Assembly (NCBI GenBank): GCA_026914155.1
Contig: JAPPGH010000063.1
Coordinates: 34,283-98,282, forward strand
Reading direction: 5' to 3'
DNA length: 64,000 nucleotides
DNA from: Candidatus Palauibacter rhopaloidicola
Lineage (GTDB): Bacteria > Gemmatimonadota > Gemmatimonadetes > Palauibacterales > Palauibacteraceae
Shown one piece after another: positions 57,359-64,000 of the stretch. The notes below the pieces were generated by a model, which saw nothing but the letters and a program-made list of their open reading frames with translations, ran no database searches and was not told where the DNA came from. The position numbers and the translations under genes are program-made. Positions within the stretch are counted from its first letter, which is position 1. Every line of letters starts with the position of its first letter.

Positions 57359-58459
57359 TCAGCGCCCGGTGGCCTGCTTCGAGGACGGCCGGGAGTTCTT
57401 CGCCTCCGCCGCGCCCGCTCCCGCCGCGGCCTCGGCCGCGTCAGGGTCCGGGATCGTCATCCCGAGTTCTTCGCGGATCCGGGCCTCGATCTCCTCCGCG
57501 ATGTCCGGGTTCTCCCGCAGGAAGGTCTTCGAGTTCTCGCGCCCCTGCCCGAGCCGGACATCGCCGCCGTACGAGTACCAGGCGCCCGCCCGGTTCACGA
57601 TGCCGATGCTCTCGCCCATGTCCACGAGCAGACCCTCCCGGCTCACGCCCTGGTTGAACATGATGTCGAACTCGGCCTGCTTGAACGGCGGCGCGCACTT
57701 GTTCTTGACGACCTTCACGCGGGTCCGGCTCCCGACGAGGTTGTTCCCCTCCTTGATGGAGGCGATCCGGCGGATGTCGAGTCGGAGCGAGGAGTAGAAC
57801 TTCAGCGCCCGGCCGCCCGTCGTGGTCTCGGGATTCCCGTACATGACGCCGATCTTTTCGCGAATCTGGTTCGTGAAGATCACGGCGGTGTTCGAGCGCC
57901 CGATCGCGCCCGTCAGCTTGCGGAGGGCCTGCGACATCAGCCGCGCCTGAAGGCCGACGTGCGAATCCCCCATCTCGCCTTCGATCTCGGCCCGCGGCAC
58001 GAGCGCGGCCACCGAGTCCACCACGATAACGTCGAGCGCGCCGGACCGGACGAGCACCTCGGCGATCTCGAGCGCCTGTTCGCCCGTATCGGGCTGCGAC
58101 ACGAGCAGGTTCTCGATGTCGACGCCCAGTCTCTGCGCGTATCCGACGTCGAGCGCGTGCTCGGCATCGATGAACGCCGCGACGCCGCCGTCCTTCTGCG
58201 CGTTCGCGATGACGTGGAGGGTGAGAGTGGTCTTACCCGACGATTCGGGACCGAAGATCTCGGTCACGCGCGACCTCGGAATGCCGCCGATCCCGGTGCT
58301 GTGGTCCAGGTTGATCGCCCCCGTTGAAATGGCGGGGATCCGCACCCGCGCCCCTTCGGTTCCGAGCCGCATGATGGCTCCCTTGCCGTGGGCCCGTTCG
58401 ATCTGGTTGAGGGCCACGGACAACGCCTTCTTCTGTTCCCGATCCATCTCCACACCCAT
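57359..58459 (-). CDS. recA: recombinase RecA
   Basis: From ATG 58459 (GGGAGAG upstream): [23 protein letters not shown], Walker [28 protein letters not shown] and [15 protein letters not shown]. The longer track ORF (58591) adds a non-homologous leader. Confidence 0.96.
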
Positions 58460-58534
58460 TTCACGCTCTCCCGATTTCCGAGGGGCCCGCCGGGCCGATG
58501 ACGGGGATTCGATCACCCGCCGCGGCGGAGGTTG

Positions 58535-58563
58535 ACAATACCACGCCGGACGACCTTTCGCAA
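58535..58563 (-). promoter_or_regulatory. candidate sigma70-type promoter of recA
   Basis: Minus strand: TTGCGA (58563..58558), a 17-nt spacer, then TATTGT (58540..58535). It lies about 75 nt upstream of the recA ATG. Confidence 0.45.
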
Positions 58564-58644
58564 TTTCTTCGGTTTTGCTCCGATCGTGCAATCCGGCCGT
58601 CCAAAATCAGGATGGAGCCACGTCTCAACGGGCGATCAACTTGG

Positions 58645-58672
58645 GGGGCCGTACGCTTGGTTTGACGGCCCC
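58645..58672 (-). terminator. 8-bp GC hairpin (GGGGCCGU-N12-ACGGCCCC) between the low-GC module and the recA promoter
   Basis: Perfect inverted repeat at 58645..58652 and 58665..58672. No U-run follows on the minus strand and only UUUC on the plus strand. This is a possible insulator or terminator. Confidence 0.3.
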
Positions 58673-58681
58673 TTTCACCCT

Positions 58682-58744
58682 GGAGGTGGAGGAGGAGGAG
58701 GCGGGGGAGGAGGAGGCGGCGGCGGCGTCGGAGGTGGCGGCGGA
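58682..58744. repeat. (GGN)21 triplet tract in an intergenic region (20 GGN + 1 GTC)
   Basis: GGA GGT GGA GGA GGA GGA GGC GGG GGA GGA GGA GGC GGC GGC GGC GTC GGA GGT GGC GGC GGA, read directly. It lies between the stop of ORF 58778..59323 and the recA promoter. Confidence 0.95.
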
Positions 58745-58777
58745 CTGGTCGGCCTGGGGATGTTCGATTTCTCTTCG

Positions 58778-59323
58778 CTACGCACGCGCAGTCGCCTCTT
58801 CTCTACGGGAAGTCGGTCCACCGTACTTATCGTCCAAGATGTAGTACGCTTGTTTGGCGCAGGACTTGTTCAACCATTTGCTCGTCGTAAAGCCCATAAC
58901 TGCAGATCTCGCATCCAGCTTCTGCATCCCGGCTTCCAACTCGGTCAACGAGGATCGAACCTCATCATCGCTAATGGAATAGCTTTCGATGTCATCCCAG
59001 AGCTGGGTTAGCCTTCCCTCCAACTGCCCGTACTCCTCGACCAGCAACCCCACACGTACCCGCTTGGTCGAATAGTCCCTTGCCATGTCAAGGACGGTTG
59101 CCAGAAGGACAATGGTGGCAACCACGAGCTTGATAACCTCATGTCCTGTCGGCAGGAAGTTTATCAACTCCAAACCGACTCCCGTTGCTCCCGCCAGAAT
59201 GATGACGCGTATGGACACACGCATCCTCTCGTAACGGGTTCGTAATCTGTCGTAGTATCTCACGAGCCGGGTAACGTCGAGAACGTGTTCCCATACCATT
59301 GCTCGCCGGTGAGGGTTCACCAT
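58778..59323 (-). CDS. two-TM protein, SLATT/DUF4231-like (putative membrane effector)
   Basis: 181 aa with its own AAGGAG SD 8 nt before the ATG and visibly lower GC and third-position GC than its neighbours. Layout: Y/R-rich helix (LVRYYDRLRTRYERMR), TM1 (VSIRVIILAGATGVGLELINFL), short loop PTGHE, TM2 (VIKLVVATIVLLATVLDMA), then a helical tail. The family call is by architecture from memory. Confidence 0.6.
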   Translation of the reverse strand: MVNPHRRAMVWEHVLDVTRLVRYYDRLRTRYERMRVSIRVIILAGATGVGLELINFLPTGHEVIKLVVATIVLLATVLDMARDYSTKRVRVGLLVEEYGQLEGRLTQLWDDIESYSISDDEVRSSLTELEAGMQKLDARSAVMGFTTSKWLNKSCAKQAYYILDDKYGGPTSRREEATARA

Positions 59324-59910
59324 GATGCTCTCTCCTTCGATGGAAGGCCCCGATCTCTTGCCCCTTCAAGCTTTAGGCTGTGTTCAGAACCTAGGATTAC
59401 CCGAGAAGAACACACAACCTTACCTACGTTTCCAACCGTCGTCCGGTTCCCCGAAGCCACATGAGAAAGCTCCCCACCAACGGCCCTCAGGGTCGCCGCC
59501 GGGGCCGCTTCAACGCGCCGCCGAAAACGGCCCGCCGACAGCTGCTGGCCCAGGCCCTTCTCCGCGGTCGTGTCTGGACTGGTGGAGAGGATTTCTATGA
59601 TGCGGTCCAGGCGATTCTCGACACGGGTCAACCGCCTGTCGAGGCGAGCCCCGGTCTCCCTGATATCGGCACTCAGGCGGGATTCGACGGCGGCAAGCTC
59701 CTCCGTCAAGCGGACATCCAGCCCGGTAGTCCCGTCCTCCGGGCGGACCCCAAGGCGGACGCCCAGCCCAGCGATTCTGTCCCCCAGACGGACCTCCATG
59801 GAGACGATGTCTCCCTCGAGATCCTCCCTGATGCCATCGAGCATCAGCCAGGTCAAGGTGAAGCACGCGATCATTACGCTGATCGTGGGCGTATTCGGGT
59901 TCCGCAGCAT
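59317..59910 (-). CDS. N-terminally anchored protein with 11-residue (x-R-L-x7-8) repeats; 3' third of the ORF is of doubtful coding quality
   Basis: 197 aa with a TM (ISVMIACFTLTWLML), then VRLGDRIAGLG / VRLGVRPED.. / VRLTEELAAVE / SRLSADIRETG / ARLDRRLTRVE / NRLDRIIEILS. After about codon 125 the sequence turns low-GC and non-protein-like. The stop overlaps the next ATG (ATGGTGA). Confidence 0.5.
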   Translation of the reverse strand: MLRNPNTPTISVMIACFTLTWLMLDGIREDLEGDIVSMEVRLGDRIAGLGVRLGVRPEDGTTGLDVRLTEELAAVESRLSADIRETGARLDRRLTRVENRLDRIIEILSTSPDTTAEKGLGQQLSAGRFRRRVEAAPAATLRAVGGELSHVASGNRTTVGNVGKVVCSSRVILGSEHSLKLEGARDRGLPSKERASW

Positions 59911-59927
59911 CCGTGTGCGCTCGTGAG

Positions 59928-60101
59928 CTAGGAGCGGTCGCCGGTCGTTTTCGGCGGCGGGTTGAGCCAGCCCGCGATGATCCCCTCGACCTTGGCCAGC
60001 CGTTCCCCGAGTTGCGCCAAGCTGCGCGAAATCCCGACGTAAGCCCCGCCGACCGCAAGGGCGACGGTGAGAATCACGGCAACCGTATCTACGCTGATCA
60101 C
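59928..60101 (-). CDS. small single-TM protein (57 aa), not in the ORF track
   Basis: My own translation: AGGAGGG-TGTC-GTG, then MISVDTVAVILTVALAVGGAYVGISRSLAQLGERLAKVEGIIAGWLNPPPKTTGDRS, stop TAG at 59930..59928. It ends 17 nt before the next ATG. The ERLAKVEGII segment echoes the repeats of the next protein. Confidence 0.55.
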   Translation of the reverse strand: MISVDTVAVILTVALAVGGAYVGISRSLAQLGERLAKVEGIIAGWLNPPPKTTGDRS

Positions 60102-60296: not shown

Positions 60297-60683
60297 TCAG
60301 GCGCGGGGGGCGAGGTCGATTCCGCAGGTGGGACAGAAGGCTTCGCCGCCGACCAACACTTCGGGGCATGCGGGGCATTTCCGGGGGGATGCCGCCGGCT
60401 CCCGGGGCTCCGGGGCGGAAGCCTCCGCGGGTCCCTGGGCGGCGGCGTCCCGGGCATCGAGGGCCGCGCGCTCCAGGCGGGCCCGCGTGGCTCGGTATTC
60501 CTCTTCCTGGACCTTGCCCGTCCGGTACTCCAGCTCGAGGTCCCGCAGCGCCTCGATGGCGGCGTCGCGGCGCTCCGCGGCGCCCAGTGCGGCGCCCGTG
60601 TCTTCGCCGGACCGGATCGCGGCCCAGATGATCGTGGCCAGCAGCACCGCGAGGATGACCCCGAAGAGGATGAATCCCGTCAC
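60297..60683 (-). CDS. single-TM protein with helical L-x-x-L-E-x-x-x-x-T-G-K-x-x-E-E-Y segment and C-terminal zinc ribbon
   Basis: 128 aa from GTG 60683 (GTGA overlap with the upstream stop). It has a TM (FILFGVILAVLLATIIWAAI), then IEALRDLELEYRTGKVQEEEYRATRARLE, and ends in CPACP...CPTCG. Confidence 0.65.
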   Translation of the reverse strand: MTGFILFGVILAVLLATIIWAAIRSGEDTGAALGAAERRDAAIEALRDLELEYRTGKVQEEEYRATRARLERAALDARDAAAQGPAEASAPEPREPAASPRKCPACPEVLVGGEAFCPTCGIDLAPRA

Positions 60684-61201
60684 TCGTCCACCTCCCGTGG
60701 CGGACGCCGCTCCCGTCGCGGACTTCCCTCCCGTCGCGCCGCCGCGAGTTCCAGGGCCCGCGCCGCCGCCTCCGCCGCGTCCTCGGCCGTCTCGTCGACC
60801 ACATCCTCCGGCAGCGATGCCGCGAGCCCGATCACGGGCACGCCGAACTTCCGGCAGAAGGCCGCCTCGCTGAGCGTGCCCCACTCGCCGGCGATCGCGA
60901 CCACGGCCTCGGAGGCCCGCGCCACGATGACGTTCCGCGCCTCTCCGAGTCCGGTCGGGACCGGGATCGTGACCCCGTCCGCCGCCGCGCCCGGATCTCC
61001 GCCGGGCAGGATCCCCACCACGGTCCCCCCTTCCGAGGAAGCTCCGTCGGCGGCCGCCCGCATGACGCCGCCCATGCCGCCGCACACCACGATGGCCCCG
61101 GCGCGGGCGAGGGCCGCCCCGACCGCGTGGGCCAAGCCCGCTTCCGCCGGCGCCGCCGTTCCCGAGCCGATGACCCCGATCCGCAGCGGCCGCACCGTCA
61201 C
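60680..61201 (-). CDS. TIGR00725-family protein (LOG/SLOG Rossmann-like superfamily)
   Basis: 173 aa from GTG 61201 (GTGA overlap with the dtd stop): IGVIGSG......A..VG.ALARAGAIVVCGGMGGVMRAAADGA...GGTVVGILPG, TGLGEARNVIVA.ASEAVVAI.GEWGTLSE. This matches the TIGR00725/LOG-like pattern from memory. Confidence 0.75.
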   Translation of the reverse strand: MTVRPLRIGVIGSGTAAPAEAGLAHAVGAALARAGAIVVCGGMGGVMRAAADGASSEGGTVVGILPGGDPGAAADGVTIPVPTGLGEARNVIVARASEAVVAIAGEWGTLSEAAFCRKFGVPVIGLAASLPEDVVDETAEDAAEAAARALELAAARREGSPRRERRPPREVDE

Positions 61202-61632
61202 CGCTCCAGTTGCAGGGTCACGGGGCCGTCGTTGACCAGTTCCACCTCCATCATCGCGCCGAACTCCCCTTCCGCCACCTCGCCGCCCTTCCGGCACAGC
61301 TCCACGAAACGGTCGTAGAGCGCCCGGGCCTCGTCCGGCCGCGCCGCTCCCGTAAAGGACGGACGCCGGCCCCTCCTCGCATCCCCGTACAGCGTGAACT
61401 GGGACACGATGAGGAGCGCCCCCCCGACGTCCCGGGCGGAGCGGTTCATGCGGCCCTCGGCGTCCGCGAACAGGCGCAGGCCCCACAGCTTGTCCGCCAT
61501 CCAGGCCATCGTCGCCTCGGAGTCATCCGGCGCGAAACCCGCGAGAACGACGAGCCCGGGGCCGATCGCCCCGACGACCTCGCCTCCGACCCGGACGCGG
61601 GCCTGGCTGACTCGTTGAATCACGACTCGCAA
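61198..61632 (-). CDS. dtd: D-aminoacyl-tRNA deacylase
   Basis: From TTG 61632: (M)RVVIQRVSQARV.V.GEVVG.IG.GLVVL.G....D, SQFTLYGD...G.RPSF and NDGPVT, the canonical Dtd motifs. The track ORF begins at GTG 61689. Confidence 0.9.
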   Translation of the reverse strand: MRVVIQRVSQARVRVGGEVVGAIGPGLVVLAGFAPDDSEATMAWMADKLWGLRLFADAEGRMNRSARDVGGALLIVSQFTLYGDARRGRRPSFTGAARPDEARALYDRFVELCRKGGEVAEGEFGAMMEVELVNDGPVTLQLER

Positions 61633-61787
61633 TTGCGCCGTCCCGTTGCCGACCCCGGCCGTTCGTGGCAAGCCGGTTTTCCACAGCACATCAAAAGCGG
61701 TGAACGACGAAAAGATGCGACAGCGCTCGATCCCGGGCGACTCCGCTGGCGGCCGAGCGGGCGCCCGATTTCAAAATCCACGTTATT

Positions 61788-62890: not shown

Positions 62891-64000
62891 TCAGGTGCCG
62901 CTCCAGAGGTCGGTGGGGGTGGCGTCGATGCGGGAGCCGGTTCGTTGGACGTGGGTGAGGAGGCGGTTGAGGAGGGCTTCCGGTGGTAGCGTTCGTCGGA
63001 GGCCGGTGACGGTCGCGACGATGACGAGGCGCTCGCGGGCGCGGGAGAGGGCGACGTTGAGGAGGCGGGGGAAGTCCCGGTTCCGGCGCTCGTCGAGGAA
63101 CCAGCTGCGGCCGGGGGGTGCGTCCACCGTGTCGATGACGACGAGGCGCTTCTCCCTCCCCTGGAAACGATGGATCGTGCTCACCTCCAGGTCGGCGGGC
63201 GCGGCGCGGCCGAGCCGGCGGCGGATGAGATCGTTCAGGTGGCGGGTCTGGGCGCGGTAAGGGGAGACCACCGCGATGTCCCGGACTCCGTCGCGGGCCG
63301 CGGCGCCGAGGAAGTCCGCCACGGCCTCGGCGTGGACGCGGTTCCGACGCGACCCGTCCACGCGTTCGACGCGCGGATCGAGGCCGCTCGTGTCGAGCAC
63401 GGTGAGGGCGGCCCGCTCCGCAGCGCTCCCCGCCGCACGGCCCGTCGCCTGCACCGCCCCGCGCTCGGCGACCTCCGGCGCATCCCGGAGCCGTCCGCCG
63501 TAGAAGAACTCGCTCACCAGTTCGCGGATGTCAGGCGCCATCCGGTACTGGAGATCTAGCATCGCGCATAGCCCGTCGTTCGGGGAGGGCAGCGCGTGGC
63601 CGGCCCCTGCCCCGCCCCAGGCGCCCGACCCGCCCGCGGCGCCCGGCCCGCCCGCGGCCTCCGCAGGGTCGCCGGCCCCTGCCCGGTCCACGACGCCCGC
63701 CTCCCGGAACAGGTCCGTCCGCAGCCAGCGCGCGGCCGTCGGGGCCGTGCTCGACACGACCGGGGGGAGCTGCTGGAAGTCGCCCACGGCGATCGCGGGG
63801 CCCGCGACCCTCGAGGCGGCGAACGCCACGTAGGGGAGCGGCGCCGTGCTCGCCTCGTCGATGAGCAACGACTCGAACCTCAGCTCGCGGAGTTCCTCCC
63901 GGATCGAGAGCCGGGCGAAGGTCGTGAGGACGATGTCCGCCTCCTCCAGCACCCGTTCCGCCTGGCGGGCGATCTCGAGCATGACGCGGCCCAGGTTGCG
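62891..64000 (-). CDS. SF1 helicase, Upf1/DNA2-like (AAA_11/AAA_12-type), C-terminal part; the gene continues beyond the right edge
   Basis: LLIDEASTA (motif II region), VGDFQQLPPV (III), LDLQYRMAPDI (IV), VVSPYRAQ, STIHRFQGREKRLVVIDTV (V) and LLNVALSRARERLVIV (VI). The frame stays open through position 64000. A Gly/Ala-rich insert lies between motifs III and IV. Confidence 0.85.
   Translation of the reverse strand, partial: RNLGRVMLEIARQAERVLEEADIVLTTFARLSIREELRELRFESLLIDEASTAPLPYVAFAASRVAGPAIAVGDFQQLPPVVSSTAPTAARWLRTDLFREAGVVDRAGAGDPAEAAGGPGAAGGSGAWGGAGAGHALPSPNDGLCAMLDLQYRMAPDIRELVSEFFYGGRLRDAPEVAERGAVQATGRAAGSAAERAALTVLDTSGLDPRVERVDGSRRNRVHAEAVADFLGAAARDGVRDIAVVSPYRAQTRHLNDLIRRRLGRAAPADLEVSTIHRFQGREKRLVVIDTVDAPPGRSWFLDERRNRDFPRLLNVALSRARERLVIVATVTGLRRTLPPEALLNRLLTHVQRTGSRIDATPTDLWSGT

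Follow-up and report, generated by a model that had tools for sequence, protein, structure and literature searches.

The 64,000-nucleotide stretch of the Candidatus Palauibacter rhopaloidicola genome analysed here (contig JAPPGH010000063.1, positions 34,283 to 98,282 of the forward strand; hereafter the window, numbered from its first letter) carries, upstream of recA, a low-GC gene for a protein of 181 amino acids (aa) that resembles the SLATT membrane proteins. Judged from its sequence, the real unit looks like a self-contained two-gene cassette, made up of a conserved upstream region with a strong Shine–Dalgarno (SD) sequence, the SLATT-like gene, an overlapping micro open reading frame (micro-ORF) and a hairpin. 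An initial annotation had grouped the gene with two small upstream ORFs as one membrane module. The ORF coordinates bear out three same-strand ORFs, the first two 17 nt apart and the last two overlapping by 7 nt (ATGGTGA), and hydropathy assigns one transmembrane (TM) helix each to the 57-aa and 197-aa products and two (36-58, 63-81) to the 181-aa product. Beyond these three lies a fourth coding element, a proline-rich micro-ORF (58821 or 58785..58675) that overlaps the 3' end of the 181-aa gene. The cassette and its parts are as follows.

58640..59587, minus strand: genome-specific foreign segment of 948 bp, delimited by BLASTN against the closest relative, G021; holds the SLATT-like gene, its upstream region, the micro-ORF and the hairpin
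59324..59436, minus strand: conserved upstream region, presumed promoter and 5' untranslated region; DNA homology with L001, the locus of the closest homologue; SD AAGGAG at 59335..59330; GC content at third codon positions (GC3) 0.38 when read in the frame of the 197-aa ORF
58778..59323, minus strand: 181-aa ORF, predicted stand-alone SLATT-superfamily two-TM protein; remote SLATT_4 match, AlphaFold2 pLDDT (predicted local distance difference test) 93.4, invariant residues intact
58675..58821, minus strand: micro-ORF in the +1 frame, predicted proline-rich peptide ...SNIPRPTSPPPPPTPPPPPPPPPPPPPPPG*; 48 aa from GTG 58821 or 36 aa from GTG 58785
58645..58672, minus strand: GC-rich hairpin GGGGCCGT-N12-ACGGCCCC, beginning 3 nt past the micro-ORF stop

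Profile comparisons and a structural model identify the 181-aa protein as an intact SLATT-superfamily member, belonging to a stand-alone branch that is not curated. NCBIfam SLATT_4 matches it at E = 3.8e-5, with residues 19-141 on profile positions 13-136 of 154, and NCBIfam SLATT_1 does so at E = 4.4e-3. A word-indexed search returned a single close relative (L001, 77% identical, which neighbours an unrelated convergent gene on a contig of 1.4 kb), and HMMER searches of 1.84 billion representatives gathered 281 proteins at E <= 0.001, nearly all of them 160-185 aa long and aligned end to end at 22-34% identity. Among 91 aligned members of this family, NCBIfam SLATT_4 is matched by 50 (best E value 6.7e-11) and SLATT_1 by 44; matches to Pfam SLATT_4 (8), SLATT_1 (6), DUF4231 (2) and SLATT_6 (1) also occur, and 12 of the 91 weakly match phrog_11791. 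A weak phrog_11791 match also came up when the three window products were compared with PHROGs. The residues that are invariant in the family (W11, R19, R22, Y23, L108, W109 and N152) are all kept in the window protein.

The structural model points the same way. A single-sequence AlphaFold2 prediction was poor (pLDDT 49) and was replaced by an alignment-based model, which is all-helical (helices 4-46, 49-55, 62-82, 84-113, 119-143 and 149-167) with a pLDDT of 93.4 and a predicted template modelling score (pTM) of 0.83. In a Foldseek search of the viral structure library BFVD, its best matches are giant-virus proteins annotated as SLATT (probability 1.0, TM-score 0.52-0.60). The model has the SLATT architecture of an N-terminal helix, two adjacent TM helices and a helical C-terminal part. 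The known SLATT effectors (SMODS- and SLOG-associating 2TM; Pfam SLATT_1 to SLATT_6, NCBIfam NF033632/NF033634; DRT10/UG17, DRT3, TIR-SLATT and NAP-linked) share with the window protein an N-terminal helix rich in Trp, Arg and Tyr, a pair of TM helices set close together and a C-terminal part that is helical and cytoplasmic, in addition to remote whole-domain profile similarity and the fold match.

The second element of the cassette came from what had appeared to be a repeat. A 63-bp '(GGN)21' tract at 58682-58744 is a (CCN)n run on the coding strand and lies inside the micro-ORF, whose stop is the TGA at 58677..58675 and whose GTG at 58785 has a GAGG-type SD. We compared the 220 nt downstream of those family genes for which DNA was at hand: the tract is read +1 relative to the SLATT frame, and its open frame shares 27-170 nt with the 3' ends of the SLATT genes, crosses their stop codon and ends 76-145 nt further on. 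At least nine prolines within a 15-aa window near the stop codon were found for 16 of 16 family genes, as against 2 of 169 other ORFs at the same loci. Nine extra loci, fetched with a degenerate DNA pattern for the family motif K-L-N-x-K-C-A, come from Arenicellales, Alphaproteobacteria, Chromatiales, Nitrospinota and Dehalococcoidia, and six of them have a clean +1 proline-rich ORF; three further Gemmatimonadota loci carry one as well. Overall, the proline-rich ORF is present at 27 of 30 family loci and is cleanly +1 at 23, the remainder being interrupted or shifted by indels (L077, L079 and L093) or +2 throughout (L046).

The predicted peptides, among them ...GGWPPPKNPPPPPPPRKD, ...APIPRPPQPAPPPPPPPPPKK and ...GQPPRPPNPPPPPPPPPPPQPKPSR*, share a core of the form G-x-[WI]-P-x-R-P..., followed by polyproline and a charged end, which extends from a locus of 45% GC (L048) to Gemmatimonadota. 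Between related loci, substitutions in the non-overlapping part of the proline frame fall on codon positions 1, 2 and 3 in the numbers 23, 13 and 68, and this bias towards the third position shows that the frame is under protein-level selection. At two loci (L080 and L088) the SLATT gene is truncated and the proline-rich ORF is kept. Taken over these sequence comparisons, the pair of SLATT-like gene and proline-rich micro-ORF is conserved across Gemmatimonadota, Alpha- and Gammaproteobacteria, Nitrospinota and Chloroflexota. The literature that we searched held no description of a SLATT-like gene paired with a polyproline micro-ORF, and nothing relevant to a pairing of SLATT with a proline-rich ORF. 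More generally, 'non-coding' GGN/CCN tracts beside small membrane genes can be unannotated coding sequence.

The hairpin that follows the micro-ORF folds at -21.2 kcal/mol (58640-58700; z = -2.6). It has no U-tail and was not called by a consensus terminator scan, which is uninformative for this lineage; it is a possible terminator of the cassette. At two loci, L079 (G177), where there is a C10 homopolymer run, and L093, the proline frame shifts within the tract itself, which could reflect assembly error, decay or a slippage-prone phase variation of the micro-ORF.

In this genome, the cassette lies within DNA that is absent from its relatives. Against G021 (L035; recA 96% identical), BLASTN aligns the flanks 58639..58300 at 97.6% and 59913..59588 at 77% and nothing in between, and comparison with G007 yields the identical borders, 59587 and 58640. 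By tblastn and shared flanking synteny, the SLATT-like gene is missing from this place in all seven same-genus relatives. Within 41 related genomes we found no second copy of the 948-bp segment, except for low-complexity matches to the CCN tract. The 181-aa gene has a GC3 of 0.66, compared with 0.81-0.92 for native genes. The suggestion in the initial annotation that the gene had been acquired horizontally is thus upheld by its absence from the site in seven relatives, the defined insertion borders, its GC3 and the different gene context of its only close homologue, and on this sequence evidence the insertion is recent. The AT-richness that had been noted for the gene and the DNA just upstream was confirmed (GC 0.53-0.54 at 58800-59400, against about 0.70-0.78 in flanking genes), but the low-GC block turned out to be only part of the genome-specific segment.

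The 5' end of the cassette is also delimited by homology. Similarity to the DNA of the 77% homologue sets in about 113 bp 5' of the ATG, near 59436, and goes no further than the stop codon; the AAGGAG reported before the 181-aa gene is indeed present, 6 nt 5' of its ATG. The conserved upstream region shows no significant RNA fold (z = +1.28) and no Rfam match, and a consensus scan for sigma-70-type promoters, uninformative for this lineage, called none in it; a promoter within this region is presumed.

The insertion also accounts for the shape of the neighbouring 197-aa ORF, one of the two genes upstream on the same strand, which are listed here.

59910..59317, minus strand: 197-aa ORF, chimeric; native codons 1-108 plus read-through codons 109-197
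59588..59910, minus strand: native part of the 197-aa ORF (codons 1-108), a single-pass TM protein with hendecad x-R-L repeats; GC3 0.81
59317..59587, minus strand: read-through part of the 197-aa ORF (codons 109-197), in foreign DNA
60101..59928, minus strand: 57-aa ORF, a native single-pass TM/coiled-coil gene and a paralogue of the family of the 197-aa gene; GC3 0.83

Along the 197-aa ORF, GC3 is 0.81 over codons 1-108, 0.76 without clear periodicity over codons 109-158 and 0.38 over codons 159-197. Its homologues, which were found in Gemmatimonadota only, are 108-157 aa long and 56-61% identical, and they match just the first ~118-120 residues; no relative has a homologue of codons 109-197, and the last 113 nt of the ORF are homologous to the DNA upstream of the closest SLATT-like homologue. 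From these comparisons, the 197-aa ORF is a chimera that arose when the segment displaced the 3' part of a native gene about 110-140 aa long, and codons 109-197 are probably not a functional protein segment. The ORF stays open across inserted DNA of non-coding-like composition, as far as a stop codon that lies within the beginning of the 181-aa gene; the simplest account of the tight ATGGTGA overlap is thus that it arose with the insertion.

It is a widespread assumption that SLATT proteins kill by forming pores, and the published ones are proposed pore-forming effectors that are partnered with a reverse transcriptase (RT) and a non-coding RNA (ncRNA) in DRT10, with TIR in 'Shaseng' or with NAP-GRel operons; what activates them is an unsettled question, which the DRT10 preprint calls central. 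The family described here differs from these systems: no RT, ncRNA, TIR, SMODS, SLOG or NAP partner is conserved beside it across lineages, and its partner is the overlapping polyproline micro-ORF. Homologues of the SLOG cluster-4 (SLOG4), Zn-ribbon, 57-aa and 197-aa genes that precede recA in the window were found at 0 of 28 other family loci. A check for known defence systems, as the initial annotation had proposed, was negative, with the 57-aa, 197-aa and 181-aa products all lacking a match at E <= 1 in PADLOC-DB 2.0. Its observation that no enzymatic partner is evident has thus held up, with no PADLOC hit, neighbours that vary by lineage and no SLOG4 homologue at the 28 loci. A SLATT branch whose sole conserved partner is an overlapping polyproline micro-gene would offer a minimal two-part system for the genetic dissection of activation.

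With modest confidence, we favour the reading that the low-GC gene is an acquired stand-alone SLATT-type membrane effector controlled by a translation-coupled proline-rich peptide, to which the 57-aa and 197-aa genes would be bystanders. By analogy with the SLATT superfamily, the two-TM protein would be a membrane-perturbing effector. Its activity or level would be set by the peptide rather than by a nucleotide signal, the peptide being the candidate regulator because it is the only conserved candidate beside the SLATT-like gene. Peptide synthesis would be coupled to translation of the SLATT gene. Polyproline stretches stall translation, and elongation factor P (EF-P) relieves the stall; with up to ~20 consecutive prolines, synthesis of the peptide would depend on EF-P and on uninterrupted translation. 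The most economical reading is that the pair would act as a toxin/antidote or abortive-infection module, in which a short-lived peptide is lost when translation is disturbed and the pore is released.

The comparison with two-gene toxin-antitoxin and abortive-infection modules is suggestive in several respects. The genes overlap, the two occur together at 27 of the 30 loci, the family is patchy within the phylum (17 of 401 genomes) and the insertion in the present genome is recent; such modules are likewise compact and mobile, with overlapping and probably translation-coupled frames that encode a putative membrane toxin and a tiny second product. They differ in that the small product here is an extreme polyproline peptide with no DNA-binding or known antitoxin fold, that it lies downstream of the putative toxin and that two loci keep the membrane gene without the small ORF. 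Arrest peptides (SecM, MifM and ApdA-type, with EF-P-dependent PPP motifs) are upstream leaders that control a downstream gene. With these the micro-ORF shares a short frame, long proline runs and coupling to a membrane-protein gene, whereas it is located downstream and overlaps the 3' end. The peptide is conserved outside the proline run, which suggests that the peptide itself acts.

A broader extension is speculative, and we regard it as rather unlikely to hold as a whole: stand-alone SLATT-type pores would form a widespread, undescribed class of self-contained conflict modules, in which the sensor would be the translationally coupled polyproline micro-protein in place of an enzyme that makes nucleotides. 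Because its EF-P-dependent synthesis would be needed all the time, the peptide would indicate how well the cell is translating; hijacking or stalling of translation would deplete the short-lived peptide and so open the pore.

Several observations weigh against the peptide-controlled effector. Toxicity, pore formation, translation of the micro-ORF and an interaction of both products are all presumed. The 181-aa protein has no Pfam SLATT match at E <= 1 and misses the curated NCBIfam cut-offs (23.6 bits against 55 for SLATT_4 and 17 bits against 41 for SLATT_1), and a Foldseek search of the PDB gave nothing comparable to the model, just generic helical bundles. The SLATT/DUF4231-like identity put forward in the initial annotation therefore stands as remote profile homology and shared fold but falls below every curated threshold, which makes it a remote, transitive assignment. 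Around the segment we found no integrase, target-site duplication or terminal (inverted) repeat, just short repeats at chance level, and a tblastn search of plasmid and phage collections gave no match to the 181-aa protein. Among the family loci, a tRNA-linked integration site was seen in one genus only, beside tRNA-Ser. Two loci, L001 (the closest homologue) and L091, have intact SLATT-like genes without a proline-rich ORF, which argues against an indispensable antidote. Finally, inheritance appears to have been vertical among housekeeping genes in two genera, and the housekeeping surroundings and within-genus synteny at many loci fit a non-defence cellular role equally well.

That last point is the core of the most serious alternative, which we nevertheless consider unlikely: a membrane protein of ordinary cellular function, for example in the envelope or in stress, accompanied by a regulatory ORF downstream, whose low GC reflects selection for low expression. 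The neighbours of the family are lineage-specific and mostly housekeeping, with purH/purN and tRNA-Ser in one genus, an Fe-S (iron-sulfur) oxidase and TonB receptors in another, and FeoB, SurE, ComEC, SbcCD and a type II secretion system (T2SS) elsewhere. In two genera of another family the gene has a fixed position (beside purH/purN, and beside the oxidase and TonB receptors), which suggests long vertical residence, and GC3 is depressed even at those fixed loci; indeed, the family gene has a GC3 below that of its neighbours at 16 of 16 loci, by 0.03 to 0.34. The single copy per genome and the lack of a PADLOC hit are also in keeping with a cellular role. Against it stands the very patchy distribution within the phylum, where the family occurs in just 4 of 147 genera. 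Within the genus of the window, moreover, members sit at different places in different genomes, and the insertion in this genome is recent. One genome (G020) has a member in an island with Schlafen/AlbA_2 and Csm6-HEPN genes; other contexts that resemble defence islands are an AAA_21/AAA_15 ATPase two genes off in one group and AAA_13 with Uma2 at L048. Furthermore, truncated copies exist (L080 and L088), and all SLATT relatives studied to date are immune effectors.

Two of the family loci deserve a separate description. At L040 (G020:C1:2066000-2084000), a SLATT-like paralogue of 34% identity, with its own proline-rich +1 ORF, shares an island with a tandem pair of 339-aa genes that have no known function, a Schlafen/AlbA_2-HATPase_c_4 gene and a Csm6-HEPN (Cas_Cas02710) gene. 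At L046 (6250-9435), an outer-membrane efflux (OEP) gene flanks the SLATT/micro-ORF pair on both sides, as a fragment of 145 aa and as a complete copy of 436 aa, an arrangement that looks like an insertion that duplicated or split the OEP gene.

A slightly less probable alternative concerns the second product rather than the first, and holds that programmed +1 ribosomal frameshifting close to the stop codon adds the proline-rich sequence to some of the SLATT protein as a C-terminal tail. The proline frame is indeed +1 at 23 of 27 loci (and in about 11 of 12 independent lineages of the first set), the +1 frame is open across the SLATT stop at all these loci, and an in-frame proline tail is found in 0 of 150 family representatives, as obligatory recoding would give. 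However, the codon before the stop varies (GCG, ACG, GAA, GGG, GTC, ATC, GCC, ACC or ACT) and we saw no shared slippery motif. The proline run is preceded by an in-frame ATG or GTG at all 21 tabulated clean +1 loci; often an 'xAT Gxx' pair of codons supplies this start, within the conserved R-Y-A region at the SLATT C-terminus, and several starts have a good SD of the AGGAGG or GAGG type, with AGGAGG-N9-GTG at three loci. Descent, together with a start embedded in these codon pairs, explains the constant frame. The hallmarks of prfB-type +1 frameshifting, a conserved shift-prone codon and the lack of an independent start, were not found. On these grounds, the predicted product that we favour is a separate micro-protein of 30-63 aa whose translation is coupled to that of the SLATT gene.

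The three-gene membrane module of the initial annotation fares worse, and we hold it to be improbable. Here the 57-aa, 197-aa and 181-aa genes would form one unit, a SLATT effector with small TM/coiled-coil proteins, perhaps with the nearby SLOG gene (TIGR00725) as a sensor. The shared strand, the narrow gap and the overlap speak for it, as does the SLOG cluster-4 gene two genes upstream, SLATT being named for its association with SLOG; a tail of the native small proteins, G-W-L-x-P-P-P-K-like, is also loosely like the G-G-W-P-P-P-K core of the SLATT-linked peptides of other Gemmatimonadota. The overlap, though, is due to the run of the 197-aa ORF into inserted DNA, the homologues of that ORF cover no more than its first ~120 residues, and homologues of any of these genes are missing from all 28 other family loci. 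A further comparison was made at the site itself, where window proteins were mapped by tblastn onto seven genomes of the same genus. Presence and absence between dtd and recA diverge: the SLATT-like gene is absent from all seven, but the small genes and the SLOG gene are present without it. Both the 57-aa gene and the first 108-118 residues encoded by the 197-aa ORF are thus native to the genus, and we infer that both genes are bystanders to the SLATT-like unit.

The weakest alternative, a decayed phage lysis cassette with a holin-like 57-aa protein, a spanin-like coiled-coil 197-aa protein and a two-TM holin, has in its favour small TM products, one of them with a coiled coil, but is hardly credible given the conserved housekeeping synteny across the genus with no phage genes nearby, the membership of the two-TM protein in the SLATT superfamily, the lack of any tblastn match in the phage collection and the lack of holin, spanin or endolysin matches in Pfam and PHROGs.

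The same mapping shows that the site has a history of its own. The backbone helicase-dtd-SLOG cluster 4 (TIGR00725)-Zn-ribbon membrane protein-[slot]-recA-recX-alaS is kept in all seven relatives, and the slot within it is hypervariable: across the genus, the stretch from the Zn-ribbon gene to recA contains one to three small paralogues. G023, G015 and G010 have a single 57-aa homologue there; G007 has genes of 63, 112 and 54 aa; G016 has a 57-aa homologue and a match of ~118 aa; G021 has one 140-aa gene; and G005 has a fragment. The 57-aa homologues of G023, G015, G007, G010 and G016 are 64-91% identical and at the same position, and none is accompanied by a SLATT gene there. The locus is thus an example, from an uncultured Gemmatimonadota lineage, of a hypervariable cargo slot immediately 5' of recA. 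The position of the SLATT cassette upstream of recA seems incidental, since recA retains its own conserved upstream region from 58639 onward.

The slot proteins are paralogues built to one plan: a TM helix at the N-terminus, hendecad repeats of the x-R-L type and a short tail resembling G-W-L-x-P-P-P-K. In G021, the 140-aa slot gene bears the tail that the 57-aa gene bears in the window; this fusion of a tail of the 57-aa type to a long paralogue suggests recombination among paralogues (window 59928-60101 and 59588-59910; L033 7355-8153; L035 9481-9911). The tail itself (EGIIAGWLNPPPKTTGDRS; window 59928-59990) resembles the G-G-W-P-P-[PR]-K-N-PPP core of the SLATT-linked peptides of other Gemmatimonadota (L070-L078). 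The motif is very short, and the likeness may be due to chance or to a shared binding motif.

Upstream of the slot, at 60680-61689, dtd, the SLOG cluster-4/TIGR00725 gene (Pfam LDcluster4, E = 1.3e-39) and the TM/zinc-ribbon gene are chained, and the chain recurs in all seven relatives; it is native and unlinked to the SLATT-like gene. A link to the SLOG cluster-4 gene, which lies 1.4 kb upstream, was considered and rejected: this gene is native, is found in seven relatives that have no SLATT gene there and has no homologue at the 28 other family loci. At the edge of the window, an SF1 helicase (62891-64000, cut by the edge) matches the PADLOC models for MkoA (Mokosh) at E = 5e-43. It looks like a core gene and not a mobile defence gene, because the same position is kept in seven of seven relatives.

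A further paralogue of the 57-aa/54-aa family, of 74 aa (…LRERMARVEGILEG…), occurs elsewhere in the same genome (L097 2990-3214, G000:C14). Its translated surroundings, judged by eye, place it between a transposase-like Cys-rich ORF and ORFs that resemble DNA methyltransferases.

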